Assembly: GCA_964016885.1 (NCBI GenBank)
Contig: OZ024740.1
Coordinates: forward strand, 343,046,001 to 343,110,000
Direction of reading: 5' to 3'
Length of the DNA: 64,000 nucleotides
Source: Eledone cirrhosa
Lineage: Eukaryota
Below are positions 31,558 through 50,318 of this stretch, in pieces. How positions within the stretch are numbered: position 1 is the stretch's first letter; each line of letters starts with the position of its first letter. The translations under genes were made by a program, and so were the position numbers. The notes beneath the pieces are model-generated. The model did not search any database. It had not been told where the DNA came from and saw only the letters and a list, made by a program, of their open reading frames with translations.

Positions 31558-31961
31558 AACCGTATTTCTTTGGAGATACGAAATTTCTCTACATATTGTA
31601 TAAAGCTATGCTTGAAGCGAAATCTTATTTCTTTTTTATTATAAGTTGAGCCAACTTATGCAGCTTCATATGCAAATGAGATTAATTACCTCATTTACAC
31701 AGACGAGAAAACTATATATTCTCGGCTGTCTTCTAGTCCAGCAGTCGCAAGTGGTGGGAGGAAAACAGTTAAGCCTGAAATGCATAGACGGTTGTCCCCC
31801 TTGCTTCTGCTGGACATCACCAGAGGGGGTTAGCACCCCCCCCCCCGTGTTTGCATAGCTACGGCTTCCTAAAACCGTATTTCTTTGGAGATACGAAATT
31901 TCTATATATATTGTATAAAGCTATGCTTGAAGCGAAATCTTATTTCTCTTATATATATATA

Positions 31962-33225
31962 CTAGCAGTAAAGCCCGGCGTTGCTCGGGGTCGCTCAGTA
32001 GCTGTGTTAAAGTTACAATGTTAAGTTTCTTTTTTGGCTTAAAAACTGTAGTGTCTACTGTGCAGACTTGCATGTGGTGTTTTTGATTAATATTCCTTCA
32101 ACCAACAATATGCCTTATGAAGTTAAGAAAACATAACGATAACCCGAATGTTATAACAAAAGAGGATGCTGGGGATAGAAACTGCACTGGTTATTTATTA
32201 ACAAAGATCGAAAATGTAAACACTGCAACGCAGAGAAAAACATTAGCGTAACCAAATTATCAGTTACTAGCAGTAAAGCCCGGCGTTGCTCGGGGTCGCT
32301 CAGTAGCTGTGTTAAAGTTACAATGTTAAGTTTCTTTCTTGGCTTAAAAACTGTAGTGTCTACTGTGCAGACTTGCATGTGGTGTTTTTGATTAATATTC
32401 CCTCAACCAACAATATGCCTTATGAAGTTAAGAAAACATAACGATAACCCGAATGTTATAACAAAAGAGGATGCTGGGGATAGAAACTACACTGGTTATT
32501 TATTAACAAAGATCGAAAATGTAAACACTGCAACGCAGAGAAAAACATTAGCGTAACCAAATTATCAGTTATGTCTGTCTGCACGCCTATATCACCTCTC
32601 TGCACGACTGTCTGTCTGCACGCCTATATCACCTCTCTGCACGACTGTCTGTCTGCACGCCTATATCACCTCTCTGCACGACTGTCTGTCTGCACGCGTA
32701 TATCACCTCTCTGCACGACTGTCTGTCTGCACGCGTATATCACCTCTCTGCACGACTGTCTGTCTGCACGACTGTCTGTCTGCACGACTGTCTGTCTGCA
32801 CGCCTAACGACGAAATATTTGCTTGTTTTACGTAGTCTTTAAATAGACTTGTTTTCAAGTAAAAATATTGTTTTAAAATGCTTTTAAATGGAAATGAAGC
32901 AAAACGGAAGTTTAGTGTTCGAACTGATGAATTTTGCAGCAATGTCATTTTAAACGCTGAGAAAGCCAACGTAATTTTTTACGTAAGACGCTCAATGTAA
33001 ACAGAACAAAGGGAAATAACTGATAACTTACGCTCAAAAATCGATACATTATATTCGATTTCGTCACATAGGGTGGGTCAATTTGAAATTTTTTTTTCCG
33101 ATGTCTTCGCTAGGGCTCAATGTACAAGTATAGCAATTTCAGTGCAATTCCGTGAGAGATTCTAAGAGGAGATGTGTGCCAAAAATCGATAGACAGACAG
33201 ACAAGCACAGTTTTATATATATAGA
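31962..33225 (-). mobile_element. Non-autonomous Helitron with duplicated 3' end and internal 37-bp minisatellite
   Basis: Minus strand begins A|TCTATATATATAAAA...(TGTC)n and ends CCCGAGCAACGCCGGG...CTAG|T; second CTAG end at 32267; minisatellite at 32572-32805. Confidence 0.8.
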
Positions 33226-40084: not shown

Positions 40085-41421
40085 TATTTCAAAGATTCCT
40101 GCCCCCTGAACAATTCTCAGGGAGATTCAACTTGGCTCTTGGAATTACAAGAACAATTCATTCGACGGCTTCTTAACAGTTTTTATTTGCCCAATTTTAC
40201 TCACAAGGTTATGTCTGCCCGAAGCCATAGTAAAATACACTTACCCAAGATACCACATAGCTGGACCGAACTCGAGACTCTAAGATTATGAAGTGAAATG
40301 TTTAACCATTCGGCTATGCTATGTCCATGCTGATCCAATAACCTCACTAATAATTAGCCAATAATAACACGAATCTCAACAATGATAAACACAAGTATTG
40401 GTATAGGTTAAGGAGGAAATTGAATGTACTTTGGTGGAGTTCAAGTGTAAATTAGCCGATTGGTTGGCAAGTTATTCACTACCCTTTGTTTTCTATCACC
40501 TGCAGGTGAGGATTTAAACAAGACAAGGAAGTAAGAATTCAAAACAAGAATCTAATTTTGTCTTTGGAATAAACACCCTTCTTTTCTTTTTTTTCTTATT
40601 CTTCTCTGTTTCTTCCGCTTTCTTTTGCCTGCATTGCCTTGCCTTTCTCACAACACATTATATTACACATACACACACACGCACTAATACACACATACAC
40701 ACACTATTGCCATTCTTAAACACACACATACAGTACCCTCTCTTTTAAACACACACGCACACTATCGTCATTCTTAAACACACACACACATACAATATCC
40801 TCTCTCTTAAACATACACGCAAGCATTCACACATACGCACACATACACACCCTTTTCTTTCTTTCTGTCTTTCTTTCTCACAACACTCTCTCTTACACAT
40901 CCACATACAGAGAAACACTTACACACACGGACACATACAGAAGCGTGCACACACGCAAATACATAGACGAAACACAGAGCTAAACACACACACACACATA
41001 AATATATCACAACCACAAACATCACATGATCACATATTCATAAACATATATCACAAGCTCACATATAAACACATATTCACACTAACACATTCTCACAAAT
41101 AGACGCATATCATATATTCACATTGATACATAAACATTGGCATACACACACACACACACACAAACATATACTAATAGATGCAATTACATTATCTATCTAT
41201 CTATCTATCTATGACTGGGATGGACACACGCGTGAAACTTGCTGAGTAAGTTCTGCTTAAATTTCTATAGAAATTCTTGACTGTAAACTTTCATTTTGTA
41301 TCATTTTGTAGAGGGACTGCCAGGTCAAACTTTGATCTGGTCAGTCTCTCAAAATATTCTACGCCTTTAGGCGAAATAGTTAACAAAAGTTTTTTTTTTG
41401 AAAAGCTAACATTTAAAAAAA

Positions 41422-43030
41422 ATGGCTGAAGCTTCTTCACCAAAATTCGAAGGAGGAAAGGGGAAGATATGTTTACAGCTTCCCCCTCCCACTGTCATAG
41501 TAGCAGATGTCAAAGACAAAGGTCAGCCAGAGGAAGGATTTTCTCCACCTGCTGACCGACAACTTGACGTTGCCATGGCAACAAACCAAACACCCAGCGG
41601 CACCAGCAACAACAACAACAACAACAATGCTACGGACGAAAACAACACCAATAACAATAACAACAACAACAACAAGACCAATAACTGTGATAACAACAAC
41701 AATGATAACAACAACACCACCAACTACAACAGCAACACAAACAAGGAAAAGGTCTCCTTCGCCCAGACGGCAAGGAAAACCCTCGACTATCTGCCAGTAG
41801 ATATAACCAAAGCGAAGGAGCTACTGGCAGATGCCAAAAAATACATATGTACGGGGAAAATGGATCATTTTCGGCCCCCCCCCCCCCGGAACTAAAAAGC
41901 CAGAGACTCCTAAACACTGTCATGTTTAGGACAGTCTCAAACAAAAGCAAAAAACCAGCTCAACCACCACAGAGTGAGATAGAGCTGGTTTTAAAAGATG
42001 TCATGAAAGACATCATATTCATTCAGAACGATAGACTCTACGGCATTCTCATGAAGGACAGGGACACAGCAGTGAAACTGTCCATAAAACCAATTACATC
42101 CACCGCATACACCTTCTACCCTACGTACATGGGTAGAAGGACACAAAAAATAAAAATTCACACCATCCTGCCGATTATGGACATGGTGGGTTTTGACAGG
42201 TTTCCTGAACCTAGACGATGACACACTAATATCCATGGGAAAGGCATCGGGTGACGCGTTCAGTGGAACGAGCCTCGAACTTGTAGTTCAAATGAGGCCC
42301 GAAAGGATCGCCCAGATCCCTGAACGCGTCATACTGGATGATCAAACTTTTATCAACATTACCGTTGAGGGTAGGCGGCCCTCGTGTTACCTCTGTGGAG
42401 CCAGAGGTCACCCGAGGGCTGTCTGTCCTCAACTTAATAAGAAAACCCCAATCCTGCCTACACCACCAACAACTGCACAACCAACACAATCACCACAACC
42501 ACCACTATAAAAACAACAACCACAGCTCAAACCAAAACAAAACAATGTCCAACCCATCCCCGCCCCCCACAAAAAAAAAACAATTTCCAAAACACCCGCA
42601 CCGCAAACACAACCCGAAAATCTATCCCTCCCCTCCAACGCGGAAGATGACCCTCGTTCGTCGTCAGACGAGGAGGAGCACTTCCACACAATCAAAAGAA
42701 AAAAAGAAAACACACCTCAGACACACAAATGAAAACAACCCCTCCCCAAAACATAACACTGACACCAACACAAAAGAGCGCACAACAACAGCAAACAAAA
42801 AACACCACACAAAAACAAAAACATGCATACACATACATAAACACAAGAAATAAAAAACTGTTAAACATTGTGTACAACAACAATTTAGTAAAAACCTAAG
42901 GGCCTAACTTCACCCAGGCAGGGGATTTCCCCCACCTCAAAATGATTAAGGCCCCAGAGGACACATATAAAACACTAAAAAACAACTTTAAAGAGGACGT
43001 GCCCCCCCCCCCCCCCCTGCGTCGGGCCCA
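41422..43030 (+). pseudogene. Tx1/L1 ORF1 (gag-like, CCHC zinc knuckle), frameshifted
   Basis: ORF pieces 41422-41895, 41847-42221 and 42193-42510; VEGRRPSCYLCGARGHPRAVC; poly-Asn N-terminus; 3' end approximate. Confidence 0.8.
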
Positions 43031-43237
43031 TTAACCACGTCCTCCTAAAAAACTACCCCACCCCCTCCCACAAACACCCACACAACTCCAAACACCTCAA
43101 CCACACAACACACTGATGCCCCTACACTTCCACAAACCACCACCCCACCCAACAACCCATCCCCCACCCTCATGGAAATTGTGTAGCCCGATACCCGGGA
43201 CGCAGAGAGGTAAGTGCCTTTTCTCTTCACCACCAAC

Positions 43238-46200
43238 ATGGCTATGCTAAGAGTAGGCTGTCTAAATGCGCGTGGCCTGGGCTCAACTTGGAAGCAAGCA
43301 ATGCTTCTAAATGACCTCAGGTCACAACGTATAGATGTGATGGTTATTTGCGAGGCCCGGATCAGCAACGTGTGACAGCTGGCCCCCACCTTTGATGACT
43401 TTGAGATGCCTGCATCTCTCTGTCAGCCCGGAGGTGGAGATGGGGTTGTCGTTCTGCTGCAAAAACATCTGGGTCTCGCAACACAGACGGTACATTTGGA
43501 CCCGGAGGGTGGACTAGTGGTTCTAGACCTTGGCAGTGGTGAAGGCGGAGCGTTTAGGTTGGTAGCCGTCTACGGCCCTTTCGGGTCAATGCGGCTGGAC
43601 TTCTTCCATCGTCTGAAGACTTTTCTAGGTGCACGCTGGGACTACGTAGGGGCCTGTCCCGATAGAGAGGGGTGTAATAGCTTCAAAGAGTTAATCGGTC
43701 GATTTGACCTGGCCGATAGATATCGACTAGATTTTCCGACTGCGCCAACCTGGACTTGGGCAAACCATAGCAGATCATCTAGGTCGTACCTAGATAGGTT
43801 CTTAGTTAGAAATAAGGATAAGGACTTTTTAAGTTGTCCAATAATGCGCATGGTTGGCTATTCAGACCACAAGTTAGTGACCTGCATGGTCAACCTTGAC
43901 AGACCGCATAGACAGGGACCCGGTTACTGGAAGCTCAACTTGTCCTTACCGACAAGTAAGGCTTACAGGGACCGGATTAGCACTTTAGTTAAGGAGCTGT
44001 TGACGGGCGCCATCGTCAACAGCAGGTGGTGGGGATCTCTCAAAAGAGAGATTAGAGTAGTCTCTATAGAATTTAGTAAGGAGTTAGCCTCAAATAGAAA
44101 TAGGAAGGAAAGGGAGTTGGTAGATAGTGTAGAAGAGGTAATTAGAAGCGGCGACGTGGCCAGAGTGCTAGCGTCGAGAACGGCTCTGGGCCAGTTCTTC
44201 GACGCGAAACACGAAGGCTGCTTCGTCCGAAGCAAAATACGTGCTCTGGGAAACGAGGGGACCAAAGCTGTTAGCTGGGCCCGCTTGACAGAAGCCAAAA
44301 GAGGGAGTAGATCCACTATCCGGTCTTTGCGAGACCAGGATGGACGGGTGATCTTTGAGCCTAAGCAGATGTGCGAGGCTTTTCAAAAGCACTTTGCCAG
44401 ATTGTTCGGAAGGGGCGGGAGCCGGTTGGGGAAGTGGACTTCGGTCCATACCTCGACGGCCTGCCGCATCTCTCGGACAAGGAGGCGAAGTCCTGCGAGG
44501 ACCGATTTCAGCCGCTGAGATAGAGGACGTGCTGAGCCAATGCGGCAAACGCAAATCCCCGGGTCTCGATGGTCTTCCATACGAACTATATCTAGCTATG
44601 CCGGACTTGTTCCCGATCTCCTTGAGGCGGTCTACTGCAACTGGCAACAGAACGGGAGAATTCCCTGTGCTGTGACCAAGGGCGTAGTCACGCTAGTGAG
44701 GAAGGACGAGAACAAGGGGGACGATATAAATAATTCCAGGCCCATAACTCTGCTAAATACAGAGTTACAGATTTTGGCGAAGGTGCTAGCAAAGAGGTTG
44801 GCGCTTGTCGTGGGAAACCTGGTGGGAGATGCGCAGACATGTGCTATTCCGTCCAGGTCCATCCACGACAACCTCCACCTCATGCGATACATCATAGAGA
44901 GGGTTGGGAACGAACCCGGCTTTGGTGGGGCCCTGATCAACTTGGATCAATCTAAGCCGTTCGATAGGGTCGACCATGGTTACCTGGATGCGGTGCTAGC
45001 GGCGGCAGGCTTCGGACCCGCTTTCAGGGGTTGGATCAATGCCATGCACAGCAGCCGCATCTGCTCTAGGGTCAAGGTGAATGGCTACATCTCGGAGCCG
45101 TTCGAAATCGCGCGGTCCACCCGACAAGGGTGCCCTCTCTCCTCCCTTCTGTATGTAATGACTCTAGAGCCACTGCTGCGGAAGTTGGAGTTGTTGCAGG
45201 GCATCCCGTTGGAACCGGGTTTGCGGAAAGCGGTGTCGGCCTACGCGGATCACGTAACAGTAATGGTGTCGACGGCCTCGGAAATCGGGGCGATCGGCAC
45301 CTTACTGGAGGAGTACGAAAGGTTTACAGGGGCTAAGCTGAACCGGGACAAGTCGATCGGTCTGCAACTCGGCACGTGGAGGGGCAGATCGATGCCCTCC
45401 GATGGCGTCGTCGGGCGCTGGACGGAGGGCCTGGTGAAGTTGCTCGGGGTCTGGTTCGGACCAGACCTCCAGGTGGAGAAGAACTAGGGTGAGGTAACGA
45501 ACAGGGTGTTTGCACTGACCCAGAAGTGGGCCGAGTGCAAACTGTCCCTGAAAGGTCGGGCGGAGGTGGCGAACACTTATATAGCGTCCGTCATCTACTA
45601 CCGCCTGACCGTTGTGCCTTGTCCAAGGGAAACACTCGCCAAAATGGAGCGCGCACTCTTCCAATTCCTTTGGAAGAAGCGGGCTCCTATGGTGAGGAGA
45701 TCCATCTGCTGTCAACACCCTTCGAAAGGAGGGCTGGGAATGCCGTGGCTAATGATACGTAAACACGCATTAAGGCTACGGCACCTCCAGGTATACCTCA
45801 CCGGTCAACCGGTGTGGGCCCCGTTTGTGAGGCGAGCCTTTCCCAGACTCGTCTCACTCACCAAGCTGCAATCCTGGGTCAAGCAAAGACCGAGAAAACT
45901 GGGCGCCTGGCACACCGAGTGTGCCCAGGCGCTCACGGCTCTCTGGCAGGCGGACCCGGCTGTCAGTGGAAAATCGACCTCGTCATTCTATAGAGGGCTG
46001 GTGGTTAGCAGGTGCGACGACGCCCCCGGAGAAGCCCTAGGCATGTAGGAAGACGAACTGGCCAACCTGTTTGGTAGGATATTCAGCCCGGGACCCATGG
46101 ATAACTTCCAGAGGTCCCTGGCCTGGCAGTACTACCAAGGGGCTCTGCCCGTTCGAGAAAGGCTCTACAGACACGGGCGCCCGGGTAGGGACCCCTCGAA

Positions 46201-46624
46201 AAAGATCTGTCCCAGATGCGTGTGCGACGAGGAATCCGTTGCACACGCATTGGTACACTGCTCGGGCATTGCTGATCTGTGGGGCTATGTCGAACAACTG
46301 CTGTCAAGGGTGGGACCGATCCGGTTGACCACCGAGTCTATTGTAACGATCAAGCCGCCTCCCCTCTTCAAAAACGAAGGAGAGGCGGTGTTTCTGTGCG
46401 TAATAGCCATGGCGAAAGAGGTTGTATGGTGGACGCGTCTGAAAGGACTGAGGTCAGACACCTTTCTCTCTGGCCAACAACTGGTCCGTTTCTTCCGATA
46501 TCATTTCGGAAGAAGGATCAGGATGGAGAGAGAAGTGCTGCACCCCAGCCGTTTTTATGAAAGATGGGTGAAAGTGGCGAGAATGGCCCGTGTGAATGGG
46601 CCTTCACTCTACATCAGACTATAG
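43238..46624 (+). pseudogene. Tx1/L1 ORF2 (APE endonuclease, reverse transcriptase, C-terminal CCHC), disrupted
   Basis: MAMLRVGCLNARGL start; SYLDRFLV, SDHK, YWKLN; KSPGLDGLPYE, RPITLLNTE, LDQSKPFDRVDH, RQGCPLS, YADH (mutated YADD); CPRC...H...C; several stops and frameshifts. Confidence 0.93.
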
Positions 46625-46900
46625 GTGAGGAAGATGAAAGATCAAGGGAGCACTCCCTCTCTGTGCTCCTGAGGAGAAGGGTTGCACACTTTTTTCGGGG
46701 GTGTGTGCGACCCCCAAGGCGCCTCCTCCCTATTGAGGATTTTGTTATTAAATTTATTTTGTTATATTTTATTTTATTTTTATATCTTGTTATTGCCTCC
46801 TCCTTATTGAGGACGCCTTTTTATGTAAACTCCCCCCTTTGTACTTGTCCCACTTTTTTATGTCCTGGTGGCAAATAAAAAGAAAGTTATCTATCTATCT

Positions 46901-46971
46901 CTGTATGTAAAATCCCCGGCATGTCTTTGTATTGTCCCCTTTTCTTGTGCGCCCTTGTGGCTAATAAAGAA
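46901..46971 (+). mobile_element. Tx1 3'-UTR-only insertion (~70 bp)
   Basis: TGTATGTAAA...CCCTTGTGGCTAATAAAGAA between two (ATCT)n tracts. Confidence 0.8.
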
Positions 46972-47015
<44 letters not shown>

Positions 47016-47452
47016 CTGAAAGAGGTTATATGGTGGACGAGGTTAAAAGGGGTGAGGTCAGACACCTTTCTCTCCGGCGAGCAACTGATTCGTTTTTTCA
47101 AATATCATTTTGGAAGAAGAATCAGGATGGAGAGAGAGATACTGTACCCCAGCAAATTTTATAAAAGGTGGGTGAATGTGGCAAAGATGGCCCGAGTGGT
47201 TGGGCCTTCTCTCTATATAAGCCTGTAGATTGAGGAAAAAGAGGAAGAGAGGAGGGGAGTACTCACTCTTGGTGCTCCTGGAGATGAGGGTTGTACATTT
47301 TTTCGGGGTGTGTACAACCCCTGTGTAACGTCTCCCCCCTATTGGCGATATCAATTGTTATTTGTTATTTTATTAATAGTTTTATACCTCTATGTAAACT
47401 CCCCATTTGTATTTGTCCCATTCTTTTGTGCCCTTGTGGCTAATAAAGAAAT

Positions 47453-47454
<2 letters not shown>
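47016..47454 (+). mobile_element. Tx1 5'-truncated copy (~440 bp)
   Basis: Homologous to 46413-46888 and 49801-50250; flanked by (ATCT)n. Confidence 0.9.
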
Positions 47455-47527
<73 letters not shown>

Positions 47528-50251
47528 GGCAATTAGAAGTGGCAACGTAGCCAGCGTGCTAGCAACGAGAACGGCCTTGGACCAGTTCTTCGACGCAAAG
47601 CACGAGGGCTGCGTTGTCAGAAGCAAAATACGTGCTCTGGGAAACGAGGGAGCCAAAGCTGTTAGCTGGGCCCGAGTGACGGAGGCAAAAAGTGGCAACA
47701 AGTCCACGATTCGGTCTTTGAAGGACCAAAACGGACGCGTGATACGTGAGCCGAAGCAGATGTGTGCGGCTTTTCAGCGGCACTTTGCTCGGCTGTTCGG
47801 GGGGAGCGGCGCGCCGGGAGAGGCTATAGATTTCGGTCCATACCTCGACGGCCTACCGCGACTCTCGGACAGCGAGGCGAAGTTCCGCGAAAAGCCGATT
47901 TCAGCCACTGAGATAGGGGACGCGCTGAGCCAATGCGGCAAACGCAAATCTCCAGGTCTCGACGGTCTACCCTACGAATTTTACGTAGCAATGCCGGACT
48001 TATTCTCCGGTCTCCTGGAAGCGGTCTACTGCAACTGGCAACAGAACGGGAGAATTCCCAGTTCTGTAACCGGGGGCGTGGTCACACTAATCAGGAAGGA
48101 CGAGAATAAGGGGGATGACATAGGCAACTTCCGGCCCATAACTCTGCTAAACACAGAGTTACAGATTTTGGCCAAGGTGTTGGCAAAGAGGCTGGCGCTT
48201 GTCGTCGAGAACCTGGTGGGAGAAGCGCAGACATGCGCGATCCCGACCAGGTCCATACACGACAACCTCCACCTCATGCGATACATCATAGAGAGGGTAG
48301 GGTGTAAACCCGGCTTCGGTGGGGCCCTGATCAACTTGGATCAGTCTAAGGCTTTCGATAGGGTTGACCATCGTTACCTGGATGCGGTGCTCGAGGCGGC
48401 AGGCTTCAGACCCGTGTTCAGGGGCTGGATTGCTGCAATGCACAACAGCAACATCTGCTCAAGGGTCAAGGTGAACGGCTACCTCTCGGAGCCGTTCCAT
48501 ATTACGCGATCCATTCGACAGGGATGCCCTCTCTCCTCCCTTCTGTACGTACTGACTCTCGAGCCACTACTGCGGAAGCTGGAGCTATTGCAGGGCATCC
48601 CTCTGGAACCGGGACTGCGGAAAGCGGCGTCGGCCTACGCCGACGACGTGGCAGTAATGGTGTCGAGCGCCTCGCAAATCGAGGAAGTCGGCACCTTACT
48701 AAAGGAATACGAAAGTCTCACAGGAGCGAAGCTGAACCGGGACAAGTCCATCGGTTTGCAACTCGGATCGTGGAGAGGCAGACCGATCCTTCCGTCGTCG
48801 GACGCTGGACGGAAGGACCGGTAAAGCTGCTCGGGGTCTGGTTTGGTCCGGACCTCCAGGTGGAGAAGAACTGGAACGAAGTGACGGCCAAGGTGTTTGC
48901 ACTCACCCAGAAGTGGGCCGAGTGCAAACTATCCTTGAAAGGTCGAGCGGAGGTGGCGAACACTTTTATAGCGTCCGCCATCTACTACCGCTTGACCGTC
49001 GTGCCTTGTCCAGCCAAAACGCTCGCCAATATGGAGCGCGCGCTCTTCCGATTCCTTTGGAAGAGGCGGGCTCCTTTGGTGAGAAGATCCATCTGCTGCC
49101 AACACCCTTCTAACGGAGGGCTGGGGATGCCGTGGTTGACGATGCGCAAACACGCGCTCAGGCTGCGGCATCTCTACGTATTCCTCACCAGACAACCGGT
49201 GTGGGCCCCGTTCGTGAGGCGAGCCTTCCCACGACTCGTCTCGCTGACCGAGCTGCAGTCCTGGGTCAAGCAGAGACCGAGGAAAATGGGCGACTGGCAC
49301 ATCGAATGTGCTCAGGCGCTCACAGCCCTCTGGCAGGCGGACCCGGCGATCAGTGGAGACTCCACTTCGTCATTCTATAGAGGGTTGGTCCGCAGCAAGT
49401 GCGACGACGCGCTCGGTGAAACTCTGGGCGTAGAGGAAGATGAACTGGCCAGTCTGTTCGGTAGGACCTTCCGCCCAGGACCGATGGACAACTTCCAAAA
49501 GTCCCTCGCCTGGCAGTGCTACCGAGGAGCTCTACCAGTTCGAGACAAGCTCTACAGACATGGGCGCCCGGGCAGGGACCCTGCAAAAAAGATCTGTCCA
49601 AGGTGCGTGCGAGACGAAGAAACCGTCGCGCACGCATTCATACACTGCCCGGGCGTCACTGAACTCTGGGGCTATGTAGAACGACTATTGTCGCGGGTGG
49701 GACCAATCCAGTTGACCACCGAGTCCATTGTCATGATCAAACCGCCACCCTCCTTCAAAAACGAAGGAGAGGCGGTTTTCCTTTGTGTGATAGCTATGGC
49801 GAAAGAGGTTGTATGGTGGACAAGGTTGAAAGGGCTGAGGTCAGACACCTTTCTCTCCGGCCAACAACTGATTCTTTTTTTCAAATACCACTTTGGAAGA
49901 AGAATCAGGATGGAGAGAGAGGTGCTGTACTCCAGCAAGTTTTATGAAAGGTGGGTGAAAGTGGCGAGAATGGCCCGAGTGAATGGGCCTTCTCTCTATA
50001 TCAGCCTGTAGGTTGAGGAAAAGGAGGAGGAGAGGAAAGGAGTACAAGCTCTTCGTACTCCTGGAGATGAGGGTTGCACATTTTTTTTCGGGGGTATGTG
50101 TTACCCATATAAACTGTCTCCCTCTATTGGGGAAAATCGACTAACTTTTAAATTCCATCTGTGATAACATTTTACACGTTTTTATTGTATGTAAACTTCC
50201 CCCTTTGTATTTGTCCCCTTCTTTTGTGCCCCTGTGGCTAATAAAGAAATA

Positions 50252-50252
<1 letters not shown>
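47528..50252 (+). mobile_element. Tx1 5'-truncated copy (2.7 kb) with near-intact RT and C-terminus
   Basis: ORFs 47556-48824 and 48524-50011 joined by one frameshift near 48790; LDQSKAFDRVDH, YADD intact; flanked by (ATCT)n. Confidence 0.95.

Positions 50253-50318
<66 letters not shown>

Follow-up and report, generated by a model that had tools for sequence, protein, structure and literature searches.

Stacked copies of a Tx1-like LINE at (ATCT)n microsatellites in Eledone cirrhosa

We analysed a 64,000-nucleotide stretch of Eledone cirrhosa DNA (assembly GCA_964016885.1, contig OZ024740.1, positions 343,046,001 to 343,110,000, forward strand), hereafter the window, in which four copies (A-D) of a Tx1-like long interspersed nuclear element (LINE) lie head to tail on the same strand at 41190-50318, bounded and separated by five (ATCT)n runs. 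The four copies are separate insertions of one family, ATCT stands at every joint, and none of the copies carries poly(A). Based on this arrangement, we think it rather probable that the family prefers (ATCT)n as its insertion site and enters it in one orientation, by way of a nick in the AGAT strand and likely pairing with the element's RNA. Some form of ATCT targeting at the level of the family can be proposed with good confidence, while the chances that the endonuclease itself would be specific appear to us evenly balanced.

Four copies between five (ATCT)n runs

The stack consists of the following features, in their order along the window:

41190..41212, + strand: (ATCT)n run 1, 23 bp, 5' flank of copy A
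41213..46887, + strand: copy A, a plausibly full-length, decayed Tx1-like LINE whose 3' untranslated region (UTR) ends AATAAAAAGAAAGT
41422..43140 (end approximate), + strand: open reading frame 1 (ORF1) region of copy A, frameshifted, homologous to the ORF1 of a sister lineage (see below)
43238..46624, + strand: ORF2 of copy A, with apurinic-like endonuclease (APE; GDWN motif deleted), reverse transcriptase (RT; RVT_1, E 6e-22) and zf-RVT
46888..46900, + strand: (ATCT)n run 2, 13 bp, A-B joint
46901..46971, + strand: copy B, a 71-bp tip of the 3' UTR (extreme 5' truncation)
46972..47015, + strand: (ATCT)n run 3, 44 bp, B-C joint
47016..47453, + strand: copy C, the last 70 ORF2 codons and 3' UTR, starting at the equivalent of about 46414 in copy A
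47454..47527, + strand: (ATCT)n run 4, 74 bp, C-D joint
47528..50251, + strand: copy D, 2.7 kb, 5'-truncated, starting at the equivalent of 44136 in copy A, with RT (E 4e-27) and zf-RVT
50252..50318, + strand: (ATCT)n run 5, 67 bp, 3' flank of the stack

ATCT is present at 8/8 junctions of copies A-D. A scan of the whole window revealed that 5/5 ATCT/AGAT runs of at least 12 bp sit at element joints, all of them on the + strand. The 54,871 bp outside the stack contain no ATCT run of at least 12 bp, and other perfect microsatellites occupy 10,074 bp (18%) of them. By a rule-of-three estimate, ATCT runs cover less than about 0.3% of such DNA, so that repeated chance hits are not credible. The three copies with different truncation points (B, C and D) each start immediately 3' of ATCT; the later copies therefore landed in ATCT, whatever made the repeat, and a tail supplied by the element is insufficient on its own. 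The upstream run ends exactly in ATCT before B, C and a copy in a read joint described below, and A and D are compatible with the same phase. An initial annotation of this DNA had placed all five runs within 1 bp of these coordinates, and its argument that the repeat is more than a passive tail is strengthened by the position of ATCT ahead of 5'-truncated copies, three of them in this window and one more in another sample.

As that annotation had stated, all four copies share one orientation and end GTGGC(T/A)AATAAA(AA)GAA(A), with no poly(A) run. The order at the 3' junction is AATAAA, GAA, one variable 4-nt unit (AGTT, ATCT, ATTT, ATAT or ACAT) and then pure repeat, with AATAAA about 6-7 nt upstream of the repeat. 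Cleavage usually takes place 10-30 nt past AAUAAA.

The copies are 83-92% identical in pairwise comparison. Over the last 407 ORF2 codons, A and D differ synonymously at 100 codons and non-synonymously at 61, and 114 of the 188 changes fall at third codon positions. Divergence so rich in third positions indicates that the source elements diverged under coding constraint, rather than that one copy was duplicated locally. The many synonymous differences between the two long copies had been noticed before, and the example quoted for them is present in the sequence; four independent insertions, as then proposed, follow from the identity values, the third-position changes and the distinct truncations. 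A single insertion multiplied by local tandem duplication, or an assembly artefact, would fit the head-to-tail layout, and near-identical arrays are known in the sister lineage. However, this explanation is scarcely credible in view of the same divergence, the three truncation points, the distinct 3' UTRs and a family that is high-copy and heterogeneous in sequencing reads. We rejected duplication because of the divergence under coding constraint, copy B with its 71 bp being the least secure case.

In copy A, the 5' UTR measures about 210 bp; the 5' end was placed from a single, plausibly full-length copy of the family, so that the start is approximate, plausible rather than exact. That copy A is full length is plausible, since its ORF1 has matches among those of the sister lineage (E about 1e-10). 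The ORF1 contains one CX2CX4HX4C knuckle near 42390-42430 (zf-CCHC_4 weak, E 0.09), a motif common to the sister ORF1s. A search for ORF1 homologues gave none among 77 candidates, and in the ESM Atlas the leads were limited to CCHC-type ones under 0.9. ORF2 of copy A has stops at 43373, 45485 and 46046, single-base gaps relative to D near 44419, 44502 and 44613, and a 16-codon gap that removes the catalytic APE GD(W/F)N motif; GDWN is kept by other genomic copies (a loose end at 43625 in run X1). Copy D has one 7-bp gap near 48790. The earlier description of a full-length copy with an intact 5' end is thus plausible as to length, and fails as to intactness because of the stops, the frameshifts and the APE gap in A. 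The broken APE of copy A had no true match in the PDB, the window had 0 matches in Rfam, and the 3' end of copy D folded into no stable structure (z = -0.66). An extension of the target duplication by TT was considered for copy A and set aside, as it lies within chance.

Run 3 is in frame with the ORF2 tail of copy C (46968-47228), where IYLS repeats are fused to the C-terminus. The fusion can arise by chance because (ATCT)n has no stop on the + strand, and chance fusions of this kind could mislead gene callers. IYLS-type fusions (translated ATCT) were found in 0/152 C-terminal homologues, although the test is insensitive, the repeat being without a start codon.

The ATCT link in reads from other samples

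Parts of the element were found in 16 runs from 12 studies, carrying 13 organism labels; no RNA data set was listed as carrying it, an absence that says nothing about expression. The reads of X1, X4 and X5 (of those 16) and of X19 were examined in detail. These four gave 3,815 to 249,301 matching records per run, mostly under 95% alike, which indicates a high-copy, old family. In X1 and X4, reads covered the 3' part of ORF2 more deeply than the APE region.

Restriction-site-associated DNA (RAD) reads of run X19 (sample S17, study P13) revealed a joint 46880 -> 45560, in which a 3' end is followed by (ATCT)5 and then a truncated copy; it is carried by 78 reads. Of the 284 joint rows, 12 are listed, and no other among these starts from a 3' end. 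Its GAAACA 3' junction and its truncation point at 45560 are both absent from the window, which points to two further copies, most simply at another locus. The ATCT link therefore reaches beyond the four window copies.

The available part of PMC4494074 treats a Tx1 family as target-specific when >20% of its genomic copies are flanked by the target. In our small sample, ATCT flanks 4/4 window copies and the 1/1 3'-end joint listed, and the target lies on both sides, including those of 5'-truncated copies, in a fixed orientation.

Classification and relatives

RVT_1 and zf-RVT passed the Pfam cut-offs in both A and D, with Exo_endo_phos weak in A (E 0.04); the APE motifs of copy A align with those of intact homologues. 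One such homologue, P0210, matched human L1 ORF2p over residues 5-883 (E 1.5e-53) and R2 at E about 1e-19. APE, RT and a C-terminal zinc motif, together with truncated copies that have a common 3' end and no long terminal repeats, mark the family as an APE-type non-LTR retrotransposon. The initial assignment to the L1/Tx1 type of LINE agrees with the ORF2 domains, the L1 ORF2p match and the common 3' end, and membership of Tx1 itself is likely from sequence comparison. An ORF1 bearing a CCHC knuckle is typical of Tx1, and the ORF1 here has one such CX2CX4HX4C motif.

The closest proteins are P0001 (72%), P0210 and two of Argonauta hians (GAB1606090.1 and GAB1599396.1). In a phylogenetic tree of 120 rows with midpoint root, which included 4/42 loci of the metagenome-assembled genome (MAG) G001 and 26 stored proteins and left out L052-L058 and all loci with under 250 aligned residues, A, D and these four proteins group together with 100% support, and their sister (99%) is a group of 17 rows at 44-47% amino acid (aa) identity. 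With such relatives, the host would probably be an octopod. Loci flanked by U2, U1 and TC repeats surround the family, with joining branches of 87-89% by the Shimodaira-Hasegawa-like approximate likelihood ratio test (SH-aLRT), in a tree that holds no named Repbase reference. The family has no supported grouping with the TC-flanked loci L065/L080/L081/L087, in a tree without named Kibi or Koshi sequences, which suggests an origin separate from the TC-targeting group. With ATCT as its target and no supported RT grouping with those loci, the family works like Kibi and Koshi and is not placed as a member of their lineage.

The octopod-type family represented by P0001, P0210 and Argonauta hians has the same ORF2 layout and a short APE hairpin region, and no target has been described for it. 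The available supplement of the O. vulgaris annotation, with 80 L1-Tx1 families, has no ATCT/GATA entry in the part searched (PMC13282606). A 23-nt 3'-end pattern had 0 matches in genome, metagenome and viral contigs. Protein scans for family members with accompanying DNA found none, the best matches reaching 45-52% in genome contigs and 28-31% in viral contigs; a metagenome protein scan likewise found none among the matches listed, which lie at 28-41%.

Several more distant elements were observed as well. An old 5'-truncated relic of the clade lies in the window from 5533 to about 4925 on the minus strand (55% aa to P0001, with a different 3' UTR). Distant relatives at L050:8910-9083, L047, L064, L069, L083 and L088 have their 3' ends at U2 (Keno-like) or at a U1-like sequence, or are situated within U1/U2/5S clusters, and several of these are on contigs filed under bacterial MAGs. 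TC-flanked Tx1-like (Kibi-like) elements occur on metagenome contigs at L065:22-39, L080:1-192, L081:713-793 and 6380-6426, and L087:6158-6190, and L061 ends in TTTG-type repeats.

A sister lineage that stacks without microsatellites

G001 is a bacterial MAG whose contigs C3-C19 (L001-L041, L054, L144-L163) are animal host DNA; the MAG is contaminated, and its Tx1 lineage is possibly a self-targeting LINE. The host-derived contigs gave 68 matches to the sister Tx1 lineage (38-47% aa), in head-to-tail arrays of 2-10 copies. Most copies have an open ORF2, and some arrays mix subfamilies and truncated copies. An array-specific spacer of 11-18 bp follows the 3' end and also stands ahead of truncated copies; at 4/4 terminal copies read it equals the start of the host flank. 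One 12-nt spacer after AATAAA is common to arrays on contigs C9 and C19, which have two different 3' host flanks. In most arrays the identity to a reference unit is 97-100%, and these near-identical arrays may have grown by unequal crossover.

The sister lineage thus resembles the window family in its place in a 99% clade, its homologous ORF1, its 3' end at AATAAA, the absence of poly(A) and stacking that includes truncated copies. It differs in its unique 11-18 bp spacers and mostly near-identical copies, whereas the window family has ATCT spacers and copies 83-92% alike. The initial annotation had taken stacking itself as evidence of targeting; this does not hold, given that the sister arrays stack without any microsatellite. 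Since stacking is a habit of the lineage, it is the ATCT spacer and the second case in the X19 reads that carry the evidence.

Insertion model and alternative explanations

The Tx1 microsatellite targets given in the available part of PMC4494074 are (TC)n, (TTC)n, (TTCC)n and (TTTC)n, the choice of target being ascribed mainly to the endonuclease; Kibi at (TC)n and Koshi at (TTC)n occur in teleosts, and the Tx1-1_Crp/Tx1-2_AMi group at (TTCC)n/(TTTC)n in crocodilians. Other Tx1 elements target U2, U5, 5S, satellites and transposons (PMC4494074). A review, as far as available, lists ACAY, AC, TC, TTC and TAA as repeats used by microsatellite-targeting elements and describes their mechanism as not well understood (PMC3812793). 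In SART1Bm, accurate priming rose from 36% to 76% once target-like sequence had been added to the end of the RNA, and RNA-target pairing is also reported for R1Bm (accessible part of PMC7265360).

By analogy with Kibi and Koshi, the predicted site of the APE nick is the (AGAT)n strand, where target-primed reverse transcription would begin. A GATA-specific endonuclease, as the initial annotation had proposed, is about as likely as not. The RNA would read through AAUAAA and end within AUCU units, which could pair with the nicked AGAT primer. As target would be left on both sides of each insertion, later copies could enter the same run and stacks would build up; run lengths may later have been altered by slippage. 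An AGAT nick combined with AUCU pairing would account for the orientation, the missing poly(A) and the stacking. Kibi, Koshi and the crocodilian group are likewise APE-RT LINEs of the L1/Tx1 type with microsatellite on both sides and a fixed orientation, but their units are pyrimidine-only, unlike the ATCT/AGAT of the window family with its octopod-type host. The likeness to SART1 and R1Bm (R1 clade) lies in the working model, namely an APE nick and an RNA end pairing with the nicked repeat strand; SART1 belongs to a different clade and inserts with a poly(A) tail, whereas the window copies have none.

Several points weigh against preferential insertion into (ATCT)n. The evidence comes from one locus and one read joint, the independent molecules behind its 78 reads being uncounted, and the X19 library also gives many single-start joints. 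The listing covers 24 of the 7,187 loose ends, none of them informative for or against ATCT, and 12 of the 284 joints, so that copies without ATCT flanks could be hidden among the remainder. The window contains no empty ATCT run elsewhere, as a self-made tail would also predict; the relic at 5533 to about 4925 has no ATCT run, its 3' side entering a long (GGT)n tract. In the G001 host contigs, the three free ATCT arrays seen have no Tx1 copy directly adjoining. A microsatellite (or poly(A)) follows 0/32 sister-lineage 3' ends read, so that the ATCT preference, if real, is particular to the window family and not clade-wide. In addition, AGAT nicking is a prediction.

Guidance by RNA alone, in which a loose endonuclease or pre-existing nicks would suffice and an ATCT tail borne by the element would pair with nicked (AGAT)n, both seeding and finding runs, is rather unlikely in our judgement. 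It fits the missing poly(A), the AATAAA lying 6-7 nt upstream of the repeat, the 4-nt unit next to GAA, which varies in sequence but keeps its length as if inherited, and the contact of each ATCT run in the window with a copy; the 12-nt spacer of C9 and C19 with different flanks also looks as if a short read-through had been carried. However, the run 5' of copy A requires an earlier ATCT site, free ATCT arrays without an adjoining element exist in octopod-like host DNA, and for described APE elements that target microsatellites the endonuclease is credited with the main role (PMC4494074; PMC3812793, both as available). A broader idea, which we offer only tentatively and hold to be unlikely, is that the landing site of octopod-type Tx1 elements would be set by a short 3' RNA read-through and not by the endonuclease, with ATCT captured here and unique 11-18 nt spacers in the other branch. 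If such programming by the RNA tail were true, the window family would be locked onto a genome-wide microsatellite, and specificity could switch in one step by a tail swap.

Self-stacking, in which copies enter at the family's own 3' junction and reuse a short locus-specific spacer after a founder hit ATCT by chance, is favoured by the sister arrays of 2-10 copies, whose spacers agree with the host flank and are found ahead of truncated copies too, by the 13-bp A-B spacer of similar size, and by the position of all later copies 3' of A, the most decayed copy. Yet the X19 joint has an ATCT spacer between two copies outside A-D, the founder's chance hit is unlikely with 0 ATCT runs in 54.9 kb, and the sister arrays are mostly 97-100% identical, perhaps from unequal crossover, against 83-92% for A-D; we regard this account as improbable. 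A passive origin, with ATCT grown after insertion from A-rich tails or copies piled up in a tolerant, repeat-rich region, would suit a window with 18% perfect repeats, and microsatellites are known to arise from retrotransposon tails (PMC3812793, available part). It would require five origins of one unit on one strand, with three insertions exactly at run ends, and the far commoner AC, ACT, ACC, AT and CATA runs have no copy of the family; we consider it very unlikely.

Other repeats in the window

Elsewhere in the window, a 3.4-kb (TAG)n tract of about 1,087 units with 85% matches occupies 26160-29526. At 31960-32806, a 305-bp unit is duplicated at 99% identity and is followed by a 37-bp minisatellite (6.5 copies). 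Two further minisatellites consist of 49 copies of a 27-bp CATCAC-based unit (8677-10300) and 130 copies of an 8-bp AGCC-based unit (21741-22786).

Implications for Tx1 elements

No LINE targeting ATCT, GATA or TATC was found in the literature; Repbase and Dfam lay outside the search, and the family may already be named there. If confirmed, an ATCT/GATA target would be a new addition to the known microsatellite-targeting habit of Tx1 elements, prior cataloguing being possible. ATCT/GATA, with its differing base make-up, would then join the short list of microsatellite targets of APE-type LINEs, probably through a separate origin in cephalopods. The two sister lineages with their different spacers would offer a natural pair for swaps of endonuclease and RNA end.

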